DNA from: an archaeon
Lineage (GTDB): Archaea; Nanobdellota; Nanobdellia; Woesearchaeales; JBDRIN01
DNA length: 24,000 bases
Direction: 5' to 3'
NCBI GenBank assembly: GCA_043815805.1
Contig: JBDRIN010000103.1
Location: 1-24,000 of the forward strand
In this document: positions 9,893 through 23,042 of the stretch, piece after piece
Layout of the letters: every line of letters starts with the position of its first letter
How positions within the stretch are numbered: position 1 is the first letter of the stretch
Position numbers and translations under genes: made by a program
Notes under the pieces: generated by a model
What the model was told of the DNA's origin: nothing
The model's input: only the letters and a program-made list of their open reading frames with translations
Database searches by the model: none

Positions 9893-10087
9893 TTACTTTT
9901 TATCCTTATACTTAACAGAGTGCTGCTCTCCAGCAGTGCCCCAGTTCTCCTTCGGCACTTCGTGAAGCACGACAGTCACTGCTTCTGCGGGTATGTGCAT
10001 CCCTACGAAGACATCTGTTATCTTCTTTATCACTTCAGCTTTCATCTCATCGGCCAAAGGCCAAGTTTCTATTGTTATCTGTGGCAT
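9893..10087 (-). CDS. 4-oxalocrotonate tautomerase family enzyme
   Basis: 64 aa. It starts MPQITIE (catalytic Pro1 after Met removal), and the size and beta-alpha-beta pattern are typical of 4-OT. It lies 1 nt downstream of the gyrA stop. Confidence 0.85.
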   Translation of the reverse strand: MPQITIETWPLADEMKAEVIKKITDVFVGMHIPAEAVTVVLHEVPKENWGTAGEQHSVKYKDKK

Positions 10088-10088
10088 T

Positions 10089-13000
10089 TTATTCCTCCGT
10101 AACCTCTTCCTCAGGTTCTGCTTCTTCTTTGACTATCCTGGCTGTAGAGACAATCATGTCGCCAGGCTTCATCTTCATCAGCCTTACGCCCTGGGTGTTC
10201 CTTCCGATGGTAGAAATACCTGATGAAGGAGTCCTTATGATTATGCCTTGTTTTGAGATGAACATCAGTTCATCATCATCTGTGACGTCTCTTACAGCGC
10301 ATACAGGGCCGTTCCTTGCAGAAGTCTGTATGTTGATGACTCCTTTTCCGCCACGATTGATCAACCTGTACTCAGATATCCTTGTCTTCTTTCCAAAGCC
10401 GTTCTCTGTGATAGTCAAGAGCTTCCTATCATCAGCTGCAGTGACCATGCCAACGACAGCGTCGCCTTTTTTCAGGCTGATGCCGCGCACGCCCATGGAT
10501 GTCCTGCCTATAGGCCTGGCGTTTTTCTCGTCAAACTTCACAGCCATGCCATGTTTTGAAGCGAGAATCAATTGTTTTGTGCCGTCAGTCAATTTGACAT
10601 CGACAACGTCATCATCATCGTTCAAAGTGATACCTCGTATTCCGCCTTGTCTTGGTCGTGAATAGGCCTTCAGGTTGGTCTTTTTCACCAAGCCTTTCTT
10701 TGTTGCCATGACAAGATAATGCTTGTCATCGAACTCTTTTATGGGGATGACCGCCTTGACGACCTCACCAGGTTCTAGCTGGACGAGGTTGATGACCGCT
10801 TTTCCCTGACCTTGCCTTGAGGCTTCTGGTATCCTGTATACTTTAAGCCAATAGACCTGGCCCTTGTCTGTGAACACAAGCAAGTAAGAGTGAGTATTGG
10901 CGATGAACAAGTGCTCGATGAAATCTTCTTCCCTTGCCTTTGCAGCAATGACTCCTTTTCCGCCTCTTCTCTGAAGCTTATAAGTCTCAGTGGGCAATCT
11001 CTTGATATAACCTGAGTGGGTTATCGTGACAACCTGGTCTTCTGCTTCAATCAAGTCTTCGATTTCAAGGTCATCCTCTGCCTCTTCAATCTTGGTCCTT
11101 CTTTCATCGCCATATTTGGATATTATCTCTTTCATCTCCTGCTTTATCAAATTGAGGATTTTGTTCTCATCTGCAAGTATCTCTTGGAGCTTCTTGATCA
11201 GCTCAAGCAGTTCTTTGTATTCCTGCATGAGCTTTTCTGTCTCTAAGCTTGTGAGCTTCTGTAGCTTCATGTCAAGTATGGCCTGGGCCTGTTTCTCGCT
11301 GAGCTTGAAGCTGCTCATCAAGCCGTCCCTTGCGACTGCAGCGTCTTTTGATTTCTTTATGAGCTTAATAGCGGCATCTATGTTTTCGAGAGCGATCTTC
11401 AACCCTTCTAAGATATGAGCCCTCTCTTCTGCTTTCTTAAGGTCGAACTCGGTCCTTTTCCTGACGACAAGTCTTCTGTGCTTCAAGAAGACTTCCAGCA
11501 TAGGTTTCAATCCCATGACTTTAGGCTGGTTATCTACTAGAGAAAGCATCAGGATTCCAAAATTATTCCTTAATCTTGTGTGTTTAAAAAGTTGGTTTTG
11601 CAGGACCTCTACGTTGGCGCCTTTCTTCAAGGTTATTGCGATGCGCATGCCATTCCTGTCAGACTCGTCCCTCAAGTCAGAGATGCCCTCTACTTTCTTG
11701 GTCTTAACAGCGTTTGCGATCTCTTCGATGAGCATGGATTTATTCACCATGTAAGGTATCTCTTTGACTATGAGCTTCTCTTTTTCACCTTTTTTCTCCA
11801 TTTCAATGACTGATTTTACAATCGCTCTTCCTCTTCCAGAAGTATAAGCTTGAACAATGCCCTGCCTTCCTGCGATAATTCCGCCTGTCGGAAAATCTGG
11901 TCCTTTGACAATAGATAGCAGTTCTATGATATCTATCTCTGGGTTTTCGATGAGTTTGATTACGCCTTGACAGACTTCTGTTATGTTATGCGGCGGGATG
12001 TTGGTCGCCATGCCTACAGCGATACCAGAGCTGCCGTTGATTAATAGATTCGGGACTTTGCTTGGCAATACCAGAGGTTCTTGCAGGCTTTCATCGAAGT
12101 TAGGAGCAAAAGGAACAGTCTCTTTGTCTATGTCTTGGAGAAGCTCTTCTGCCATGCGAGACATTTTTGCTTCCGTATTATGATTTATGAAACCGTTTGC
12201 TATAAAAGAATGGCATTTACTATTGACTTTGACAGAGAAAACATCTTCTTTTTTCTTCAATCTGCTGATTTTTGCGACTTGATTGAACAAAAACCTGTTT
12301 TTCAGGATGAAATCAACCAATTGTTTGTCTTTTGAATCGATAATCTTAATCAGTCTTGAGTAATTTTTTTCTAGATTGTTGTATCGGTTGATATTTGTTC
12401 TCTTTAAGAAAGATTTTTTGTATTTCTTCCTAAGATATTCAGTCAAGAAAGGGATGTAATCTGTCTTGCTCATCCTATAAGGATTCATCGATTTAATGTG
12501 TGCAAGTTTTCCCTTCTTTTTTTCAGAGAAGAAATCAATCTCTTCTTTGAAGTTTTTGATAGAATCATAGCCAGAAATTATGAGCTTGTAACATCCATTC
12601 CTTGTATCTCTGTAAGGCTTGGTGGTTGCGATTCCAAAACTTAGCAAGACAGTCTTTAATTGAGTGATTAGCTTTGAACTTTTAGAATTATAGGTCAGTT
12701 CAATGCCTTTTCCTCCATGTCTTTTGTCTGTTTTGTAACCGACAGAACCATCGCCTTCAAACAAGCCGTTAAGGAAGCTTTTTATGTTGCTTTTAGTCGA
12801 CAAAAGCACAGAAAAAGGAATCTCTTTTTTATCAGATTTTACTTCAGTCAGGCCGATATTTTTTAAGAAAAGCACGATCTTTTGCTCATAGATACTTAGT
12901 TCAGTGCAATTTCCTTTTAGTTTTCTCTCATAAAGCTGAACCCCTTTAAACTGAGACTTGATGACTGACTTGACTTTGTTATAGAATATTTTATCTTGAT

Positions 13001-13862
13001 TGTTGAATAAAATATGTTTTTGGTGGAAACTTCCTTCACTCACCAAAGCACCTAAAAGAAATGCCAAAGAATCATTTATCTTGGTCGGAAGCTTAACGTT
13101 GTTCTTAAAGCCTTTTTCAGGATGATATTTCCTTAAATCCAGAGAATTTTTAGAGAACAAAGCATGTTTTCTATTGAGGATTATGATATCGTCTTTGGTT
13201 ATGTTTTCAAGGAGTTTCCATTCAATCTGCGGAAAACCATTCTTGAAAGTCCAGCCTAGGACCGGATGATTATAAGATCCTTTGATTTTATATCCTAAAG
13301 CGGTTTCCAGCTCTATGATGTTATGCTTGCCTGAGTTGAAGAATTTACTAGCAAGGTTCTTTTTGCCGTTATATGATAATATTTTCATGTTAATACGGGC
13401 TTCACTTTTGTTGGAAATATTATGAATAGGCAAAATACCTTGTTCAGTCAAAATCAATGAATCTCCTGTTATGCAATATCTCATAGCGGCTGCGTTGTCG
13501 CCGTCAACACTTCCAAAGTTACCCTGGCCCATGACTAGAGGATATCTTAATGAAAATGTTTGTGCCATCCTTACCAAAGAATCGTAGACTGCGGTGTCTC
13601 CGTGAGGATGATACTTACCAAGGACTTCTCCCACGATCCTGGCGCACTTTTTGAAAGGAGTATTGTGCTTCATACCCATGTCGTTCATAGCATATAAGAT
13701 ACGCCTATGGACTGGTTTAAGGCCGTCTTTAGCATCAGGCAATGCTCTTCCAACTATGACACTCATAGCATACTTCAGATAAGAAGTCTTCATCTCATCC
13801 TCAATGACTTGAGGTATGACCCTGTCTGTTACCGGTTTGCTATTTTTTGATTCTTCAGCCAT
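10089..13862 (-). CDS. gyrA: DNA gyrase subunit A, interrupted by an intein (824-aa extein + 433-aa intein)
   Basis: Motifs present: [30 protein letters not shown], the active site AAMRY/TEAK split by the intein, and the GyrA box QRRGGKG in the C-terminal beta-pinwheel domain. The GyrA box indicates gyrase rather than Topo IV. Confidence 0.95.
12177..13475 (-). mobile_element. GyrA intein with a LAGLIDADG homing-endonuclease domain (433 aa)
   Basis: It begins [13 protein letters not shown] directly after the catalytic Tyr (codon 13476-13478) and ends [11 protein letters not shown] followed by +1 Thr (12174-12176). A block-B-like GSYNHPVL is present. Two LAGLIDADG motifs occur ([14 protein letters not shown] and [12 protein letters not shown]). 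The segment is visibly more AT-rich than the flanking extein DNA. Confidence 0.9.
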
Positions 13863-13982: not shown

Positions 13983-14528
13983 TCATCCCGTCCCCTTCAT
14001 AACTACGCCTAGCCTTTCAAAGAGCATGGCCACATATCCTTTATGCACGATGTCTTTCTCTGCAAAGCCGAGCTTGTTCAGAAGTCCTATGATCTTTTCT
14101 TTGGCATCATTGCCGTCTTCAGAATCTAATGCGATCTCTATGTAAGTGCCCAGCTCTTCTATGTCATCAAGGCACAGCTCGAAGTCACCAAGTGTTCCTG
14201 GAATCCTTGTCTTGTGCATCGAGACTTGCTCGATAAAGCCTGTCTTTTCAAGAATGGACCTGAGCTGTTCAGAATCTTTGATCTCTGTCTCGTGCTCTAT
14301 CCAGACGCCTGCTCTGTCTGTCAAGGCCTTGAAAGTGAGGATGTTCTTTGTGGATTGCCTGATTCTAAGGATAAAGTCGCCTGGCTTTGCAACCTTAGAT
14401 ATCAAGTCTTTTCTTTTGAAGACTGCATCGTTCTGCTTTTTCGGCTCAAAGAACTCTGCGCCCATATCGACAAGCTTCTTCTTGATATCTTCCAAGCTTT
14501 CAACCTTGACTCTGGCTTCGACTTCCAT
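13983..14528 (-). CDS. CYTH-domain protein (class IV adenylate cyclase CyaB / triphosphate tunnel metalloenzyme)
   Basis: 181 aa. It begins MEVEARVKV (the CYTH ExExK signature), and the later conserved acidic/basic strands (RIRQ, IEHETEI, LDDIEELGTYIEIA) match the CyaB-like layout. Confidence 0.85.
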   Translation of the reverse strand: MEVEARVKVESLEDIKKKLVDMGAEFFEPKKQNDAVFKRKDLISKVAKPGDFILRIRQSTKNILTFKALTDRAGVWIEHETEIKDSEQLRSILEKTGFIEQVSMHKTRIPGTLGDFELCLDDIEELGTYIEIALDSEDGNDAKEKIIGLLNKLGFAEKDIVHKGYVAMLFERLGVVMKGTG

Positions 14529-14558: not shown

Positions 14559-14584
14559 TCTTTGGTTAAAAGAATAAAGTAAAG

Positions 14585-14598
14585 AGAAAAATAAATAA
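14585..14598 (-). terminator. oligo-T tract (minus strand TTATTTATTTTTCT) downstream of the micro-ORF cluster
   Basis: A T-rich run follows the stop of micro-ORF d. Archaeal intrinsic termination uses oligo-T tracts. Confidence 0.3.
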
Positions 14599-14608
14599 GC
14601 CCTAAATG

Positions 14609-14680
14609 CTAATCATCGTCATCATTGTCATAAAAGTCATCATCGTCATCATCGCTGAATTGCCATTCTTTATGTTCCAT
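14609..14680 (-). CDS. micro-ORF d, 23 aa, poly-aspartate peptide MEHKEWQFSDDDDDDFYDNDDDD
   Basis: ATG at 14680 with GGGAGGT 7 nt upstream, 20 nt after the stop of micro-ORF c. Not in the track because it is shorter than 60 aa. Confidence 0.4.
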   Translation of the reverse strand: MEHKEWQFSDDDDDDFYDNDDDD

Positions 14681-14700
14681 CTTGTGTACCTCCCGAATGT

Positions 14701-14808
14701 TTACCAATCCTCACTGTCAGAGTCTTTGTATTCTTCTATCTCTTGTTCATCTATAGGATTCTCCTTGTAATTTTCCGGCTCTGGCTTTTTCATCTTTTTG
14801 CGTGCCAT
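14701..14808 (-). CDS. micro-ORF c, 35 aa, basic head and acidic tail: MARKKMKKPEPENYKENPIDEQEIEEYKDSDSEDW
   Basis: ATG at 14808 with AGAGGTGG 4 nt upstream, 26 nt after the stop of micro-ORF b. Confidence 0.45.
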   Translation of the reverse strand: MARKKMKKPEPENYKENPIDEQEIEEYKDSDSEDW

Positions 14809-14816
14809 CTTGCCAC

Positions 14817-14834
14817 CTCTTTGATCTCTTTGAT
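14817..14834. repeat. perfect 9-nt tandem duplication (ctctttgat x2) in the b-c spacer, overlapping the SD of micro-ORF c
   Basis: Direct reading: 14817-14825 and 14826-14834 are identical. Confidence 0.85.
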
Positions 14835-14954
14835 CTATTGGTATTTCGCTGCTAACACAGCAGCTTTCTTTGCTTTCTTCAGATCTTTAGCTTTTCTCTT
14901 TTCAGCATCTTTTTGCTGTATGTCTGTTTTTTGCTGTATGTCTGTTCTGTCCAT
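14835..14954 (-). CDS. micro-ORF b, 39 aa, basic peptide MDRTDIQQKTDIQQKDAEKRKAKDLKKAKKAAVLAAKYQ
   Basis: ATG at 14954 with AAGGAGAGGG 3 nt upstream. It contains an in-frame duplicated hexapeptide (TDIQQK x2). Confidence 0.45.
   Translation of the reverse strand: MDRTDIQQKTDIQQKDAEKRKAKDLKKAKKAAVLAAKYQ
14911..14946. repeat. perfect 18-nt tandem duplication (ttttgctgtatgtctgtt x2) inside micro-ORF b
   Basis: Direct reading: 14911-14928 equals 14929-14946. The length is a multiple of 3, giving the TDIQQK repeat on the minus strand. Confidence 0.9.
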
Positions 14955-14983
14955 ATTCCCTCTCCTTGAATTTATACATAAAG

Positions 14984-14998
14984 AAAAAATAAAAAAAA
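14984..14998 (-). terminator. oligo-T tracts (T8 and T6 on the minus strand) between micro-ORF a and micro-ORF b
   Basis: The minus strand reads TTTTTTTTATTTTTTC shortly after the stop of micro-ORF a. Confidence 0.35.
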
Positions 14999-15024
14999 TT
15001 ATGAAGCCAAAAATAGAACCTGGC

Positions 15025-15093
15025 TTATTTCTTTTTTGTTTTTTTTCCTGGAACCATTCCTTTCTTGTCCATTTTCTTTTTTGCTTTGGCCAT
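15025..15093 (-). CDS. micro-ORF a, 22 aa, poly-lysine peptide MAKAKKKMDKKGMVPGKKTKKK
   Basis: ATG at 15093 with AGGAGGTGA 5 nt upstream, close to full complementarity with a canonical 16S 3' end. It lies 96 nt downstream of the wHTH regulator stop on the same strand. Confidence 0.45.
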   Translation of the reverse strand: MAKAKKKMDKKGMVPGKKTKKK

Positions 15094-15189
15094 GATAATC
15101 ACCTCCTAGCGTATTCTAAATATGTGGTTGAGTCTTAGAAATTATTTACCACTATGAATTATGCTTTTCAGCACTTTTTTCGAGTCTTT

Positions 15190-15627
15190 TCAGAATCCTC
15201 TGGCCTCCATCGGCCTATGTTCCAGACCGATGTGGTTGTCTATGTCTATGGCAATCTTCTTGATGCCGTTGAGAGTCATTTCAATGTCCTTCCTGATTTC
15301 ATCTATGGTTGTGAAGAGGCTGCTCATCCTGAGTTCGTAAGCAGATCCCATCTTGACTACTAATCCTGCCTTAGTCAGTTTTTTCAGATGATATATTACA
15401 GATCCTACAGTGGGCTCTACGATACGTGCGAGTTCTTCGCTTGTCATGCCAGCTCCTTCTTTTGAAGCTTGAACAAGGGCCTTTAGGATTTTAAGGGCTG
15501 TTTTGTCCTGGTCTCGGGAGGAGATAAACCCCAGACTGTTGCAGACCCACTCAATATCCTTATCGAGTTCTTTATCTGTAGGCTCTCTTAGTTTTCTTAT
15601 GGTGTATTGTTTCAATACTTTTGCCAT
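15190..15627 (-). CDS. winged helix-turn-helix transcriptional regulator (ArsR/MarR-like, archaeal)
   Basis: The wHTH core is MTSEELARIVEPTVGSVIYHLKKLTKAGLVVKMGSAYEL. I prefer the start MAKVLKQ (15627) over the track start 15639 because the TTTAAATA box (15653-15660) is about 29 nt from 15627 but only about 17 nt from 15639. Confidence 0.7.
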   Translation of the reverse strand: MAKVLKQYTIRKLREPTDKELDKDIEWVCNSLGFISSRDQDKTALKILKALVQASKEGAGMTSEELARIVEPTVGSVIYHLKKLTKAGLVVKMGSAYELRMSSLFTTIDEIRKDIEMTLNGIKKIAIDIDNHIGLEHRPMEARGF

Positions 15628-15897: not shown

Positions 15898-16761
15898 TTA
15901 TTTCTGCTTTTTCTTAGAATCAGTCTCTACTTCTTCGTTGCCTTCTGTAAGTTCTTCTATCTCTTTCTCGACCTCTTCGAGCATCTTCTGAGTATCCGAA
16001 TCATCCTGTGTTTCTTCTTCTGTCTCCTCAGGTTCCTCTTCTACTTCTTCAGAGGATTCTTCTTTATCTTCTCCTGTTTCAGCTCCATCTTCTTCCTCTT
16101 CAGGTTCTTCGACTACTTTTTCAAGTTTAGTCTTTCCTTTCTTGTCTTCAACTGGAGCCTCGGGCAGTGACTCAGTTGCCGCTTCCGCGGGTTCTGACTC
16201 TGCTTCTCCTTCTGCAGGCACATCGACCACTTCAAGATCACCGAGTTTCTTCTGGTCAGGCTTGGGCTCTGGCTGTTTTGCATCTTTCAGAGCCTCTTTT
16301 ATGTCTTTAGAGCCTTCAACATCAAAGTATTCGAAGAATTTCTCTGCAAGTTTGATCTCAAAGCTTCTTCCTTTCTTCTCTCTTGAGACAAAGCCGAGCT
16401 TCAACAGCTCTGCGATATGATCATAGGCACCGCTTCCCCTTGTCTTAATCACGGCGGACTGCAACATAGGCGCTTTGTAGGCAATCACAGCCAGAGTTTC
16501 CAGAGTAGCCCTTGAGAGTTCTGTGTCTGCAACAATCCTTTGGACAAGATGAAGGTATTTCTCACGTACAGTTATCTTCCAGGAAGATTCGTCCTGGATT
16601 ATCATCAAGGCGCCTTCCCTTTTTGTGTAGGCATGCTTAAGCTCTTTCAAGGCCTTATGGATCTCTTTAGGCGTCTCTCCTGTCAGCTGAGCCAGCATCT
16701 CTTCTGGCACAGGCTTTCCAGAGCTGAAAAGCAGCGCTTCTATCTTGTTTTTCAGGGTCAT
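15898..16761 (-). CDS. scpB: segregation and condensation protein B (ScpB) with a ~135-aa Glu/Asp-rich C-terminal extension
   Basis: The N-terminal ~150 aa (IEALLFSSGKPVPEEMLAQLTG..., SRATLETLAVIAYKAPMLQSAVIKTRGSGAYDHIAELLKLGFV) match the tandem winged helices of ScpB. The remainder is low-complexity acidic sequence. Confidence 0.85.
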   Translation of the reverse strand: MTLKNKIEALLFSSGKPVPEEMLAQLTGETPKEIHKALKELKHAYTKREGALMIIQDESSWKITVREKYLHLVQRIVADTELSRATLETLAVIAYKAPMLQSAVIKTRGSGAYDHIAELLKLGFVSREKKGRSFEIKLAEKFFEYFDVEGSKDIKEALKDAKQPEPKPDQKKLGDLEVVDVPAEGEAESEPAEAATESLPEAPVEDKKGKTKLEKVVEEPEEEEDGAETGEDKEESSEEVEEEPEETEEETQDDSDTQKMLEEVEKEIEELTEGNEEVETDSKKKQK

Positions 16762-17351
16762 TTTGGTTTTGAATAAAGGTTATCCGTCTTTATAAGTTTT
16801 TTCTCTTTGATCAGGGCTTCGATGAAAGGTTTCAGCTGCGTATGGCTGATGCCTATGGTCTTGCCTATGTCCTCTTCAGTCTTTGGCTTGTCAAGGCCTA
16901 TCATGATGCTGTTCAGGATAAGGGTGTTCATACCCCTTACCATGCCTTCGTGCTGGCTTTTCAATTTCAAGAAATTGGTGTTAGTCTCGTGGAGCTTTGC
17001 CAAGAGGTCGTTCAGCCAGTTCTGGAGTTCTCTCCCCTTGAAGACCAGCTCTGCAGGCTCTAAGATCTCTATAGAAGCAGGCATAAAGTTGATGCACAGC
17101 CAGGTGAGGGTCTCCAGGTTTTTTATCAGCATCTCTACCTCTGCGAAGGTGCTCCAGAGCTTGCCTTTTGTCTGTTCTATCTCTCCAAGCTCTTCTTTGA
17201 CGAACTTGATCCTATGGTCTTTCTTCAGGTTGTCCAGGTAACTCTTTATGGCTTTCTCTACATGAGCCTTGGGGCTGCCAAGCAGCTCAAAGGTCACTCT
17301 TGCAAGTATATAACCGTCTGCAATGCTTATCTTTATTTCTCTTTTATCCAT
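16758..17351 (-). CDS. hypothetical protein, 197 aa, C-terminal winged-helix-like domain; occupies the position where scpA would be expected
   Basis: ATG ORF overlapping the scpB start by 4 nt (ATGA), starting 1 nt after the upstream gene's stop (TAAGATG). The C-terminus EEDIGKTIGISHTQLKPFIEALIKEKKLIKTDN looks like an HTH. No canonical ScpA N-terminal motif is present. Confidence 0.6.
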   Translation of the reverse strand: MDKREIKISIADGYILARVTFELLGSPKAHVEKAIKSYLDNLKKDHRIKFVKEELGEIEQTKGKLWSTFAEVEMLIKNLETLTWLCINFMPASIEILEPAELVFKGRELQNWLNDLLAKLHETNTNFLKLKSQHEGMVRGMNTLILNSIMIGLDKPKTEEDIGKTIGISHTQLKPFIEALIKEKKLIKTDNLYSKPK

Positions 17352-17352
17352 C

Positions 17353-19443
17353 TTAACTCCTCTTTATCAGCACAAAAACAGCGATCGCCAACACACCCAT
17401 TATCCAATAAGAGAGATTGTTTTTTAATATTGTGTTTTTAGACTCATAAACAACCGTGTTTCCTGTTATGCTATCCTCTAAAAAACTAGTGCTATTTATA
17501 TCTTTTTCCATTTCTTCGAGGTTTTCCTGCAAAGAGACTTCTGCATCGCCTTGCACGCTGTTTTCTGCCTCTTCCACAGCAAGGTCTTCTGTCAGCTCAT
17601 AATCTGTCTTCTGGCTGTTCTTGTTTATCTTTACTTTTAATTTATAGTCGCCAGGCTCACCATTGAATGAGTTTTCCAAAGTTATGTTCCTGGTGCCTAA
17701 CTGGTCCAGATCGAACTCTATTAGGTTGGCTGTTCTATTTCCCGAATAGCACTTGTTCCCCTTGTAGATATAGCTCCATACCTGATAATGGCTGGCCTCA
17801 TCCTCGATATTGTGGATCCGGATGGTTGTTTTCAGAGCTTCTCCCTGTTTTATCTTCTCGTCAAAAGCGATGATCCCGTATTGTTTAATCTTTCCGGGGG
17901 TTGCTGCGGCAGAATCATCGCAGGTAGAGACTGTTGTTTCCTTGCACAGAGTGCTAAGAACACCTTCAACATAAACTTCATCAGACACTTCCAGGCCAAG
18001 GCCTTCTATCTTCAAAAGATATTTTCCGTCCTTGAACTTCATGTCGCAGTTCGGCTTTATCACAATAGGTATGGTGGATTCGTAGTTTGTGAACTTCTTG
18101 TTGGCGTTGAAGCTTGAGACATAGGATATCTTGGAATTGTTCTTCTCCAGCCAAGCTTCGACAGAGCTCTTGCCTGTGTCGCCTTTGTATATGTCTAGCT
18201 TGACACGCAGGATCTCTCCGAACTTCACGACATTGTCTGATCCGGTGTAGATGTCCAAGACATGGATGCTTGAATTAGGATCTTTTCTGCTCTTTACGAC
18301 TGCAACAACAGAATTCTCCGTTTGCTTGTTGGAATTGTTGCATGCGATGAAAGAGAGCCTGTTCTTGATGACAAAGACAGCATCAGATTCGCTTATGTCT
18401 GGGGTGTAAGATTTTGAAGCTGTATTGGACGTATTGTATCTCTCTTTGATTATATTTCCGAAGAGATCTTCGATCCAATACTCTATGAAAAAAGGAAAGC
18501 TCTCATTGCTGATACCATTGTATATATTGATCTTCTCAGAATTATTATAGATAAATTTGTCTGTGGAAAGGTCCAGGGAGACATTGCAGGGGATAAAGTT
18601 CGAGTCGATGACGATGAAGCCTTTGCAGTCATGATTATTGCTGAGGTTGGTGTCATTGACAGAAGCGTTGATTATCTTTCCGCAGAGAGTGTAATTGCCA
18701 GGGATGTTGGCAAAGAAAGAGCCAGTGTTTGAGGTTGAATAAGAGTTGATGGTCTTGTTGAAGATATCTTCCTTGACAATGCTTCTGTTGCTTGTTATAT
18801 TATAATAGATAAATACAGTCACATTATCATCAATACCTAATTCATCATCAAGATTTTCTATCTTGAACAGCTTGGTGTAAGTCAAGCCTTTGAAAAGGAC
18901 ATCGTCGAGGGAAACAGAAAGTTTGATGTCCTTTCCTTGGCTTGTGTTTGAGGAGTTGGAGCTATGAGAGTCGACTATGATATGATTCTCTATTCCAGGA
19001 GTTCCGCCGATCACTAAAGACTCTACCCAATTATCATTCCAGAATTCCAGAGAAAAACCATTGCCGTTTGCTAACGAACCGTTGTAACTTACGTTGTCAA
19101 CAACGATTCCATTATAATATAATAGGACAGAATCTCCGGCGTTGTTAAGGTTGTCTCCAATGGTTGTTCCGACAGAATAGACAGAGCAGTTGATTCCAGA
19201 AAGATTGAATCCTTCTTCAACGATAAGAGAATAATCTGAATCCATAAATTGCAATAGAACTAAAGAGTCATTGCTCGCAGAGTCAGCTATTATATAATAA
19301 GAAAGATTGTTTGTTCCGTAGATTTCGACAAATTCTAGGTTATTGTCTATTCCTAAAGGATTGTACATGATCTCGTTGATGTGGACAGCGCTGACAAAGT
19401 CAATGTACACAAAGAAAAGCAAAAAAAGCATGATTTTTTTCAT
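17353..19443 (-). CDS. membrane-anchored surface protein with an N-terminal lamin-tail domain (LTD); probable glycoprotein
   Basis: 696 aa. It has a signal peptide (MKKIMLFLLFFVYIDFVSAV), an LTD signature (HINEIMYNPLGIDNNLEFVEIYG), about 27 N-x-S/T sequons by my count, and a C-terminal TM anchor (YWIMGVLAIAVFVLIKRS). Confidence 0.8.
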   Translation of the reverse strand: MKKIMLFLLFFVYIDFVSAVHINEIMYNPLGIDNNLEFVEIYGTNNLSYYIIADSASNDSLVLLQFMDSDYSLIVEEGFNLSGINCSVYSVGTTIGDNLNNAGDSVLLYYNGIVVDNVSYNGSLANGNGFSLEFWNDNWVESLVIGGTPGIENHIIVDSHSSNSSNTSQGKDIKLSVSLDDVLFKGLTYTKLFKIENLDDELGIDDNVTVFIYYNITSNRSIVKEDIFNKTINSYSTSNTGSFFANIPGNYTLCGKIINASVNDTNLSNNHDCKGFIVIDSNFIPCNVSLDLSTDKFIYNNSEKINIYNGISNESFPFFIEYWIEDLFGNIIKERYNTSNTASKSYTPDISESDAVFVIKNRLSFIACNNSNKQTENSVVAVVKSRKDPNSSIHVLDIYTGSDNVVKFGEILRVKLDIYKGDTGKSSVEAWLEKNNSKISYVSSFNANKKFTNYESTIPIVIKPNCDMKFKDGKYLLKIEGLGLEVSDEVYVEGVLSTLCKETTVSTCDDSAAATPGKIKQYGIIAFDEKIKQGEALKTTIRIHNIEDEASHYQVWSYIYKGNKCYSGNRTANLIEFDLDQLGTRNITLENSFNGEPGDYKLKVKINKNSQKTDYELTEDLAVEEAENSVQGDAEVSLQENLEEMEKDINSTSFLEDSITGNTVVYESKNTILKNNLSYWIMGVLAIAVFVLIKRS

Positions 19444-19517: not shown

Positions 19518-19527
19518 TTTTTATATA
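19518..19527 (+). promoter_or_regulatory. TATA-box candidate (TTTTTATATA) for the Cys-rich lipoprotein gene
   Basis: Centre is about 24 nt upstream of the ATG at 19547. It forms a divergent promoter pair with 19465-19474. Confidence 0.45.
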
Positions 19528-19546
19528 CCTCCTCCCTAATAAAATC

Positions 19547-22814: not shown

Positions 22815-23042
22815 ATGAACCCATCAATCCCTGTTTTCGTCAAAATCGAAGAATACAAAGAGATCCTGGACATAATAGATGTCATACGGAGCAAGATAGA
22901 CACTGCAAAGAACACGCTGTCTAAGATCTCTGAGTTGAAGGATCAGGAAGACCAGAAGATAGAAGAATGGTCAAAGAACCTGGATGAAGTGGAAAGGAAG
23001 ATAGACTTCGTAGACAAGACATTATTTGAACCAAGAACTTAA
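22815..23042 (+). CDS. hypothetical protein P2, 75 aa, coiled-coil module
   Basis: The ATG at 22815 has GGAGGTGA ending 5 nt upstream (22802-22809); the track start at 22806 is a GTG. VFVKIEEYKEIL...IDFVDKTLF aligns without gaps over 65 residues with the C-terminus of P1. Confidence 0.6.
   Translation: MNPSIPVFVKIEEYKEILDIIDVIRSKIDTAKNTLSKISELKDQEDQKIEEWSKNLDEVERKIDFVDKTLFEPRT

Follow-up and report, generated by a model that had tools for sequence, protein, structure and literature searches.

A cluster of lysine-rich and acidic micro-open reading frames beside an ArsR-type winged-helix gene in Woesearchaeota-like archaea

The micro-ORF locus

Here we describe four consecutive micro-open reading frames (micro-ORFs), a to d, in a 24,000-nucleotide (nt) stretch of DNA of an uncultured archaeon (GenBank assembly GCA_043815805.1, contig JBDRIN010000103.1, positions 1 to 24,000), which as a whole we call the window. 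They lie on the minus strand, in a spacer of 661 nt between the stop codon of an ArsR-type winged helix-turn-helix (wHTH) gene at 15190 and the start codon of a CYTH gene at 14528. Each begins with ATG, 4-8 nt behind a Shine-Dalgarno (SD) box, and encodes a peptide of fewer than 40 amino acids (aa) (Table 1). A preliminary description, made from the letters alone, gave the coordinates, strand, start codons and translations of all four correctly. It also credited each ORF with its own GGAGG-type box; an SD does precede all four, but that of ORF b has only an AGGAG core and is weaker than claimed.

The peptides differ greatly in charge. Lysine is specified by 11 of the 22 codons of ORF a. ORF c combines a basic head (MARKKMKKPE) with an acidic tail that ends in tryptophan. 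ORF d is rich in GAT and GAC codons with a 9-nt period, and its aromatic residues are W6, F8, F16 and Y17. Net charge drops from each ORF to the next along the direction of transcription, as first described; this is true of the window but not general, since the cluster in the related locus L003 runs acidic, basic, mixed, basic. ORF b contains an in-frame tandem duplication that is not found in L022, the closest relative identified. AlphaFold2, run on the single sequence of ORF b, gives one helix over residues 3-37 with a predicted local distance difference test score of 85.6, which is weak evidence.

ORF a appears to be a unit of its own, with a very strong SD at one end and, at the other, a terminator-like hairpin and T-run that starts inside its stop codon. 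The hairpin occupies 15026-15004, in the gap between a and b, and the T-run follows it. ORFs b, c and d are predicted to be a tightly spaced, SD-coupled trio with a T-run at the end; the gaps are 26 nt between b and c and 20 nt between c and d. The T-rich stretch after ORF d is likely to mark the end of the b-c-d transcription unit, and similar T-runs also trail the last acidic ORF in L022, L032, L033 and L035. Separately, the spacer between b and c holds a perfect 9-nt duplication (ATCAAAGAG twice, 14817-14836) that reaches into the SD of ORF c.

Table 1. Positions of the micro-ORFs, their signals and associated features, in the window or in the related locus named
Feature	Positions	Strand	Remarks
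wHTH gene, ArsR-type winged helix, conserved anchor of the module	15190..15627	(-)	Pfam HTH_20/HTH_5/HTH_24
SD of ORF a, AGGAGGTGAT	15098..15107	(-)	matches the anti-SD complement over 10 nt; spacer 4
ORF a, lysine-rich, 22 aa, MAKAKKKMDKKGMVPGKKTKKK	15025..15093	(-)	ATG; net charge +10
Hairpin and T-run, terminator-like, beginning within the ORF a stop codon	14990..15026	(-)	8 pairs, loop 7
SD-like box of ORF b, AAGGAGAGGG	14958..14967	(-)	AGGAG core, 5 nt; spacer 7; weakest of the four
ORF b, basic, 39 aa, MDRTDIQQKTDIQQKDAEKRKAKDLKKAKKAAVLAAKYQ	14835..14954	(-)	ATG; net charge +6
In-frame 18-nt tandem duplication in ORF b, TDIQQK twice	14910..14946	(-)	Tandem Repeats Finder: 2.1 copies, 100% match
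SD of ORF c, AGAGGTGG	14813..14820	(-)	GAGGTG; spacer 5
ORF c, 35 aa, MARKKMKKPEPENYKENPIDEQEIEEYKDSDSEDW	14701..14808	(-)	ATG; net charge -5
SD of ORF d, GGGAGGT	14688..14694	(-)	GGAGGT; spacer 7
ORF d, poly-aspartate, 23 aa, MEHKEWQFSDDDDDDFYDNDDDD	14609..14680	(-)	ATG; net charge -12
T-rich stretch 3' of ORF d, before the CYTH promoter region	14570..14608	(-)	read from sequence
Hammerhead-like element, 52-55 nt, directly 3' of the lysine-rich stop	L001:6570-6624, L007:4231-4285, L010:4164-4217, L011:4222-4275, L014:1496-1547		core and three stems
Coiled-coil-like 'LEWD' ORF	L003:5051-5221, L032:2970-3185, L033:1593-1772, L035:1647-1826, L038:1104-1295		from sequence

Evidence that the micro-ORFs are coding

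We compared the spacer with 5000 dinucleotide-preserving shuffles of itself, counting ORFs of at least 18 aa that have both an SD and an ATG. None of the shuffles gave four such ORFs; the maximum was three, reached once. Over both strands of the window (48 kb), a core-SD 6-mer followed by ATG occurs at only seven sites. Three of these are ORFs a, c and d, another three belong to solid genes, namely TrmB (716), an Asp/Glu racemase (1555) and an ORF of 75 aa (22815), and one is apparently spurious. The preliminary description had likewise noted the same SD consensus before solid genes of the window. This is borne out for TrmB; its naming of the ORF at 22815 as ribosomal P2 is not, as Pfam returns no P2 match there.

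The four ORFs have escaped annotation. An exact look-up in a collection of 15 billion proteins finds none of them, while the CYTH protein is present (MFH1506613.1, labelled 'MAG: ... [archaeon]') and the wHTH protein is present as the 145-aa P0002; a to d are therefore unannotated in the public record. They have no match in Pfam (E up to 10), PADLOC or PHROGs, and ORFs a, b and c, together with the lysine-rich peptide of L010, have none in NCBIfam (E up to 1). At E up to 10, several micro-peptides from related loci were also without a Pfam match. When ORF b was searched exhaustively with phmmer against 1.84 billion representative proteins, its L022 orthologue was the sole match. In the PDB, a profile built on the ORF b family had no significant match, only helices of V-ATPase subunit G at E of about 0.2. 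We found no report in the literature of polycation/polyanion micro-ORF clusters or of such a linkage to a wHTH gene.

L022 provides the main comparison. Its wHTH protein (P0003) is 82% identical to that of the window, the closest among the matches listed, and the two wHTH genes are saturated at synonymous sites (proportion of synonymous differences, pS, 0.76; of non-synonymous differences, pN, 0.11). The same four micro-ORFs follow 3' of the wHTH gene in L022, in the same order and each with ATG and SD. The orthologue of ORF a, MAKAKKKMDKKGMVPGKKGKKN, is identical at 20 of 22 aa, and a hairpin and T-run come after it; those of b, c and d are MNRENLQQKEAEKNKTKELKKAKKAAQLAAKYQ, MARKKMKKPESEPYEESPMEEEPEETKENEDEW and MKQERRFDDDDDYDSNDW. 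The SD and spacer of ORF a agree at 13 of 14 nt, and the SD counterparts of b, c and d read AGGGAGGG, TGAGGTGG and GAGGAGG. The frames, the basic-to-acidic order beside the wHTH gene and the SDs are thus all kept in a relative. The check proposed in the preliminary description therefore comes out in favour of the ORFs, and the outcome named there as refuting, nucleotide conservation with disrupted frames or lost SDs, is the reverse of what L022 shows. Beyond the cluster, L022 has a 134-aa ORF on the opposite strand, not CYTH.

Differences between the two loci follow a coding pattern. Nucleotide identity is 56-93% in the micro-ORFs and 20-56% in the spacers between them. Pooled over a to d, differences at first, second and third codon positions number 22, 14 and 46 (chi-square p=4e-5), with pN of 0.17 and pS of 0.75, values comparable to those of the wHTH gene. 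Counted in their own frames, the differences are 6/3/18 for ORF b and 8/6/17 for ORF c. The two frames differ and each is biased to third positions, so one antisense frame cannot account for both. Read from the alignment, codons 1-10 of ORF c have three synonymous and no non-synonymous changes, and the C-terminal half of ORF b has eight synonymous changes and two replacements. The view that this is not one decayed gene is upheld: there are four separate, SD-led coding ORFs in different frames. The hairpin after ORF a is also retained, with one pair altered on both sides (AAGCCA/TGGCTT in the window, GAAGCCC/GGGCTTC in L022).

When the spacer is compared with the related loci by blastn, nucleotide conservation is seen in L022 alone. 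Searches of a to d against these loci by tblastn, which had been suggested as a check, gave only compositional matches, although the best of them fall on analogous micro-ORFs. From these comparisons, purifying selection evidently acts on the peptides that ORFs a to d encode, and their charge class is evidently retained even where sequence is not. Judged from sequence, the four are very probably real protein-coding genes.

Distribution across related wHTH loci

We collected 38 related loci and scored the 31 with about 60% or more wHTH identity; L038 is outside the 31. Several are near-duplicates, and the number of independent lineages is ~15. The wHTH gene is the sole gene that the window and the related loci have in common. 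Within -600/+1700 nt of it (56 kb over the 31 loci) there are 27 lysine-type and 8 acidic micro-ORFs, all SD-led. The remaining 100 kb of the same loci contains no SD-led micro-ORF of either type.

The lysine-rich class, which includes ORF a, consists of SD-led ORFs of 8-31 aa with the form MAK(K)...KKK and adjoins the wHTH gene in 21 of the 31 loci. Its position varies. The ORF lies just downstream of the wHTH gene in the window, L022, L001, L007 (with a GTG start), L010, L011, L014, L033 and L038; ~195 nt upstream and divergent in L002, L006 and the L025-28 and L030-31 groups; and farther downstream, inside the cluster, in L003 and L032. Acidic/aromatic micro-ORFs with an SD are present in the window, L022, L003, L005, L013, L032, L033 and L035, with MEDWEKFDEEEEDEDYGGDYDKEWN, MNDWDYPKLDDDDDSDDEKWDY and MKYDDEYDKENDDGDDNDEYDPDKDDY as examples. 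L003 has an analogue of ORF c (MPKAKKKEEKK...DDDDEEDK). The C-terminal motif of ORF b, [ED]LKKA[KR]KxAAxxAKYQ, is found in five lineages (window, L022, L032, L035 and L038).

Orthologue pairs at other loci confirm that such ORFs are coding. The lysine-rich ORFs of L011 and L014 differ by seven synonymous and two non-synonymous changes, and their upstream flanks are unalignable up to the SD. Conservation of the acidic ORF shared by L003 and L013 runs from ATG to stop, with a 6-nt in-frame indel and unalignable flanks. In-frame indels of GK repeats separate the lysine-rich ORFs of L002 and L006 (6 nt) and of L025 and L027.

Basic and acidic ORFs share a cluster in about six lineages (window, L022, L003, L032, L033 and L035); among the loci compared, some contigs are incomplete. 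Net charge over the cluster is -1, +3, 0 and -2 in four of these six. The balance is only rough, so we do not use it as evidence.

In several lineages a further ORF of 56-71 aa, coiled-coil-looking and with a conserved L/I-E/Q-W-D motif ('LEWD'; Table 1), accompanies the charged micro-ORFs 3' of the wHTH gene. Pfam gives no match for it, and it does not occur in the window.

A putative hammerhead element in sister loci

Five sister loci have an unusual element at the end of the lysine-rich ORF (Table 1). It reads CCUAC-CUGA[A/G]GA-GCU(loop)AGC-GAAA-CCUGGGG(loop)CCCCAGG-UC-GUAGG, a hammerhead core with an open stem I. The order is CUGA[A/G]GA, stem II of only three base pairs, GAAA, stem III, GUC and the stem I strand. 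Of the 74 pair cells that 15 pairs give in the alignments, every one is paired; one pair is compensatory, and there are two wobble changes. When four copies were used to build a covariance model, it recovered the fifth in L007 (E=3e-15). At E up to 10 the same model detects no copy in the window, and a scan of viral contigs for the hammerhead core gave 0 matches.

No Rfam family matches the element at its gathering threshold. The best match is the RAGATH-1 hammerhead (RF03152; E=0.0026, 29.8 bits against a gathering threshold of 56.3), with which it shares the core and stems; its score below that threshold, its short stem II and its absence from the window and from viral contigs set it apart. 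The element is probably a hammerhead ribozyme that is physically coupled to the stop codon, and its placement could make cleavage depend on the terminating ribosome. Such coupling could serve as a simple system for the interplay of translation and ribozyme cleavage.

An ORF for a small Zn-ribbon protein follows the element in L001, L007 and L010; it too is missing from the window. Where the sister loci have the hammerhead-like element, a simple terminator hairpin stands in the window and in L022. L033 has a comparable hairpin and T-run a few bases past its lysine-rich stop.

A proposed charge-based module

Together with the ArsR-type wHTH gene, ORFs a to d appear to constitute a lineage-specific module of Woesearchaeota-like DPANN archaea. 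Selection seems to retain mainly the charge class, the MAK/MAR-KK head at the N terminus, the ORF b motif and, in acidic peptides, one or two aromatic residues. Opposite and extreme net charges are encoded together in the window, and similarly in the other mixed clusters. We propose tentatively that the peptides work as a charge-complementary set of binders and neutralisers, a plausible reading that the preliminary description had raised as a polyelectrolyte pair. As small polycations, the lysine-rich peptides would attach to a polyanion, for which nucleic acid (DNA, ribosomal RNA (rRNA) or messenger RNA (mRNA)) is the likeliest candidate. The acidic/aromatic peptides would bind and buffer the lysine-rich peptides or other basic proteins, serving as counter-ions or chaperones, and the adjoining wHTH protein would set micro-ORF expression. 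This mechanism may apply, although we would sooner expect it to fail than to hold; for the whole statement, coding and mechanism together, we see the chances as even.

Several observations weigh against the proposal. Lysine-rich ORFs occur with no acidic partner in at least seven lineages (L001, L002, L006, L007, L010, L011, L014 and the L025/L030 groups), so the partner is not obligatory. The clusters of L032 and L003 are unbalanced, with net charges of -7 and -9. In L032, L033 and L035 the ORF in the c position is down to 8-12 aa, which is hard to square with a stand-alone protein. Similarity between lineages is mostly compositional; part of the grouping into families therefore rests on class, position and SD, not on alignment. 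ORF a is conserved at synonymous sites as well (pS 0.09, against 0.76 for the wHTH gene), which points to a role at the level of RNA or translation, besides that of the peptide or instead of it. Finally, a TATA-like sequence (TTTAGAAT) stands only ~4 nt upstream of the ORF a SD, and the same is seen in L033. A box so near the SD would place the start of transcription close to the ATG, and the SD of ORF a might then lie outside the mRNA.

In one alternative the micro-ORFs are regulatory leaders or sensors, and what counts is translation of their runs of lysine or aspartate codons rather than the peptides. A ribosome at the ORF a stop would cover the 5' arm of the hairpin and so control read-through and expression of the downstream ORFs; in the sister lineages, a ribosome at the stop codon would cover stem I of the hammerhead and control cleavage. 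ORF a has the form of an attenuator, a run of Lys codons with a hairpin and T-run directly behind the ORF, and the start of this hairpin inside the stop codon and its compensatory change in L022 suit a leader. So do the 93% nucleotide identity with L022 over ORF a and its SD (15025-15107 (-)), where one synonymous difference is seen against ~8 expected, the position of the hammerhead-like elements, and the length of some lysine-rich ORFs, merely 8-13 aa. RNAalifold on the window and L022 pairs ORF a codons 10-15 with the 3' arm of the terminator as a possible alternative structure, but 0 of its 18 pairs covary in this alignment of only two sequences. A leader also fits poorly with the peptide-level purifying selection on b, c and d and with the defined motif of b. 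Lysine-rich ORFs are divergent from the wHTH gene in L002, L006 and the L025 and L030 groups; that of L002 has, as read from the sequence, only a T-rich stretch downstream and no gene or structured element; and in L011 and L014 synonymous sites vary freely. Downstream genes are unrelated to lysine or aspartate pathways, being b-d and then CYTH in the window and unrelated genes at other loci. To our knowledge, hairpin-dependent attenuation is not established in archaea. We judge a pure leader function unlikely. Independent housekeeping roles, with the lysine-rich peptides as small basic ribosome- or RNA-associated proteins and charge complementarity incidental, seem to us improbable to a like degree. 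The size and composition of the lysine-rich peptides do resemble those of tiny basic ribosomal proteins, the very strong SD of ORF a suggests high expression, and lysine-rich ORFs often occur without acidic ones. In L029, L033 and L035, moreover, the wHTH gene and micro-ORF cluster lie just upstream of the gene for ribosomal protein S17e, followed in L029 by the gene for RNA polymerase subunit Rpb6/RpoK. At most loci, though, the linkage is to the wHTH gene rather than to ribosomal operons. No match to Ribosomal_L41 or another family was found (Pfam E up to 10, NCBIfam E up to 1), and at 8-31 aa the peptides are too variable in length and sequence for a fixed binding site on rRNA.

The preliminary description had suggested a toxin/antidote-like arrangement, which would pair a cationic peptide toxin with an acidic neutraliser under the wHTH regulator. 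Beyond the opposite charges and the neighbouring regulator nothing favours it: there is no match in Pfam, NCBIfam, PADLOC or PHROGs, no two-gene toxin/antitoxin architecture and nothing that suggests mobility, and viral contigs gave no match to the hammerhead motif. As read from their sequences, the lysine-rich peptides do not have the hydrophobic face or segment of membrane-active toxins, and in many lineages the lysine-rich ORF stands alone. We consider a toxin/antidote pair very improbable. Still less credible is that there are no genes at all, the ORFs being chance frames of a purine-rich spacer, or that the real gene is a plus-strand ORF of 131 aa with a TTG start (14743-15138). Purine-rich DNA does readily yield frames rich in K, E and D, (AAG)n and (GAA)n are one repeat read in shifted frames, and similarity between distant lineages is compositional. 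Chance is nevertheless hard to reconcile with the shuffles, with the retention of all four ORFs and their SDs in L022 despite diverged spacers, or with a third-position bias in each ORF's own frame when the frames of b and c differ. As for the plus-strand ORF, it has no SD, no family match and no entry in the protein collection, and its L022 counterpart is split into 79 and 71 aa; as the preliminary description supposed, it is not the gene. The chance and plus-strand explanations are effectively refuted.

Likeness to known systems

The charge-complementary reading has a eukaryotic parallel in histone H1 and prothymosin-alpha, reportedly described as a polyelectrolyte pair by Borgia and colleagues (Nature, 2018). 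As in that pair, and with protamine-like polycations on the basic side, a strongly basic partner faces a strongly acidic one, and both are of low complexity and presumably disordered. Charge class rather than sequence is conserved, and a basic nucleic-acid binder with an acidic chaperone would be the obvious analogy in function. There is no homology. The archaeal peptides are 8-47 aa long, against about 110-220 aa; they come from adjacent SD-led genes beside a wHTH gene, and their acidic partner is missing in many lineages.

The acidic AA-boxes of eIF5 and eIF2B-epsilon bind K-boxes of eIF2-beta, and acidic stretches of histone chaperones have aromatic anchors. By composition, the runs of D and E with W, Y or F in MEHKEWQFSDDDDDDFYDNDDDD, in MEDWEKFDEEEEDEDYGGDYDKEWN and at the ...SEDW end of ORF c are alike. 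Those motifs are parts of large proteins, whereas the archaeal peptides are free-standing, and the likeness is one of composition only. The small ribosomal proteins eL41, bTHX and bS22 are similar to the lysine-rich peptides in their length of about 22-35 aa and extreme K/R content, and they too are often skipped by annotation pipelines. The archaeal peptides differ in being dominated by Lys rather than Arg, in their A/P/G/T spacers, in their variable length and in their linkage to a wHTH gene.

Bacterial leader-peptide attenuators (hisL, pheL, thrL and leuL) are also short SD-led ORFs with a run of one amino acid, and the terminator hairpin right after the ORF a stop recalls them. Here, however, the host is an archaeon, the downstream genes are not for Lys or Asp biosynthesis, and the alternative hairpins show no covariation. 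Selection moreover acts on the peptides, whose ORFs are also found in other arrangements, divergent ones among them.

Two reports on archaeal small proteomes (Haloferax volcanii), obtained by Ribo-seq and optimised mass spectrometry, describe a comparable situation, conserved archaeal proteins of at most 70 aa that annotation has overlooked (PMC10117724; PMC7261190). The micro-ORF classes described here are new, and their general kind, the unannotated conserved small protein, is already known. Should the charge-pair function or the ribozyme coupling be borne out, they would belong to a new category altogether.

In its broadest form, the charge-based proposal would make these DPANN polycation and polyanion micro-proteins of 8-47 aa, governed by a dedicated and highly conserved wHTH protein, minimal condensers of DNA or RNA in the manner of protamines or H1 together with their acidic chaperones or antagonists, with the lysine-rich gene of the sister lineages coupled to a self-cleaving hammerhead. 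We think this combination rather unlikely. If true, it would be a minimal prokaryotic counterpart of the eukaryotic polyelectrolyte pairs. The polycation/polyanion reading by itself, if right, would make these the smallest known dedicated charge-pair proteins and offer a new handle on the organisation of nucleic acids in DPANN archaea. In any case, conserved and selected classes of micro-ORF escape standard annotation in a large group of archaea that are uncultured and have tiny genomes. With genomes so small, each retained gene is likely to matter. This makes a case for composition-aware calling of small ORFs in archaeal annotation.

The wHTH anchor and neighbouring genes

Homologues of the wHTH protein number 305 at E<1e-20. 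Besides P0002 itself, those among the matches listed (the best 120 of the 305) are 65-82% identical. Most homologues are without a name, and the existing taxon labels are mixed (Woesearchaeota, unclassified archaeon, Euryarchaeota); bacterial labels on some of them are apparently due to mis-binning. Position 15627 is the more likely start of the wHTH gene in the window; the deposited P0002 has 145 aa. We found no close solved structure for the protein, and in a search of defence families its similarity to Csa3/CARF regulators is that of generic wHTH domains only.

The interval between the wHTH stop and ORF a (window 15094-15189 (-); L022:3268-3370) includes a conserved block, ATTCATAGTGGnAAAT (ATTCATAGTGG), and an AGTGG-N22-CCACA arrangement that is conserved in the window and L022. 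Block and arrangement together are a candidate operator or promoter element.

By Pfam, the neighbours of the micro-ORFs in the window are gyrA, CYTH, the ArsR-type wHTH gene and ScpB. Rfam at gathering thresholds and tRNA scans gave nothing in the window. An intein that carries a homing-endonuclease domain of the LAGLIDADG type (Pfam Intein_splicing, LAGLIDADG_3) interrupts the gyrA gene (10089-13862 (-)). Next to gyrA is a 64-aa gene of the 4-oxalocrotonate tautomerase family (9893-10087 (-)), whose GGAGG box lies inside the last gyrA codons and whose ATG begins 1 nt past the gyrA stop codon. This gene shows that small SD-led genes are real in the genome of the window.

On the other side, 15898-19443 (-) holds the ScpB gene, preceded by ORFs of 197 and 696 aa for which Pfam gave no significant match. 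They could be divergent ScpA- and SMC-like partners. If so, the wHTH/micro-ORF module would sit between chromosome-segregation genes and gyrA, in the genome of the window only. A strong SD-like run, GGGAGGAGGT (19526-19535 (-)), has no start codon within 14 nt and sits ~85 nt upstream of the 696-aa gene, which starts at 19443.

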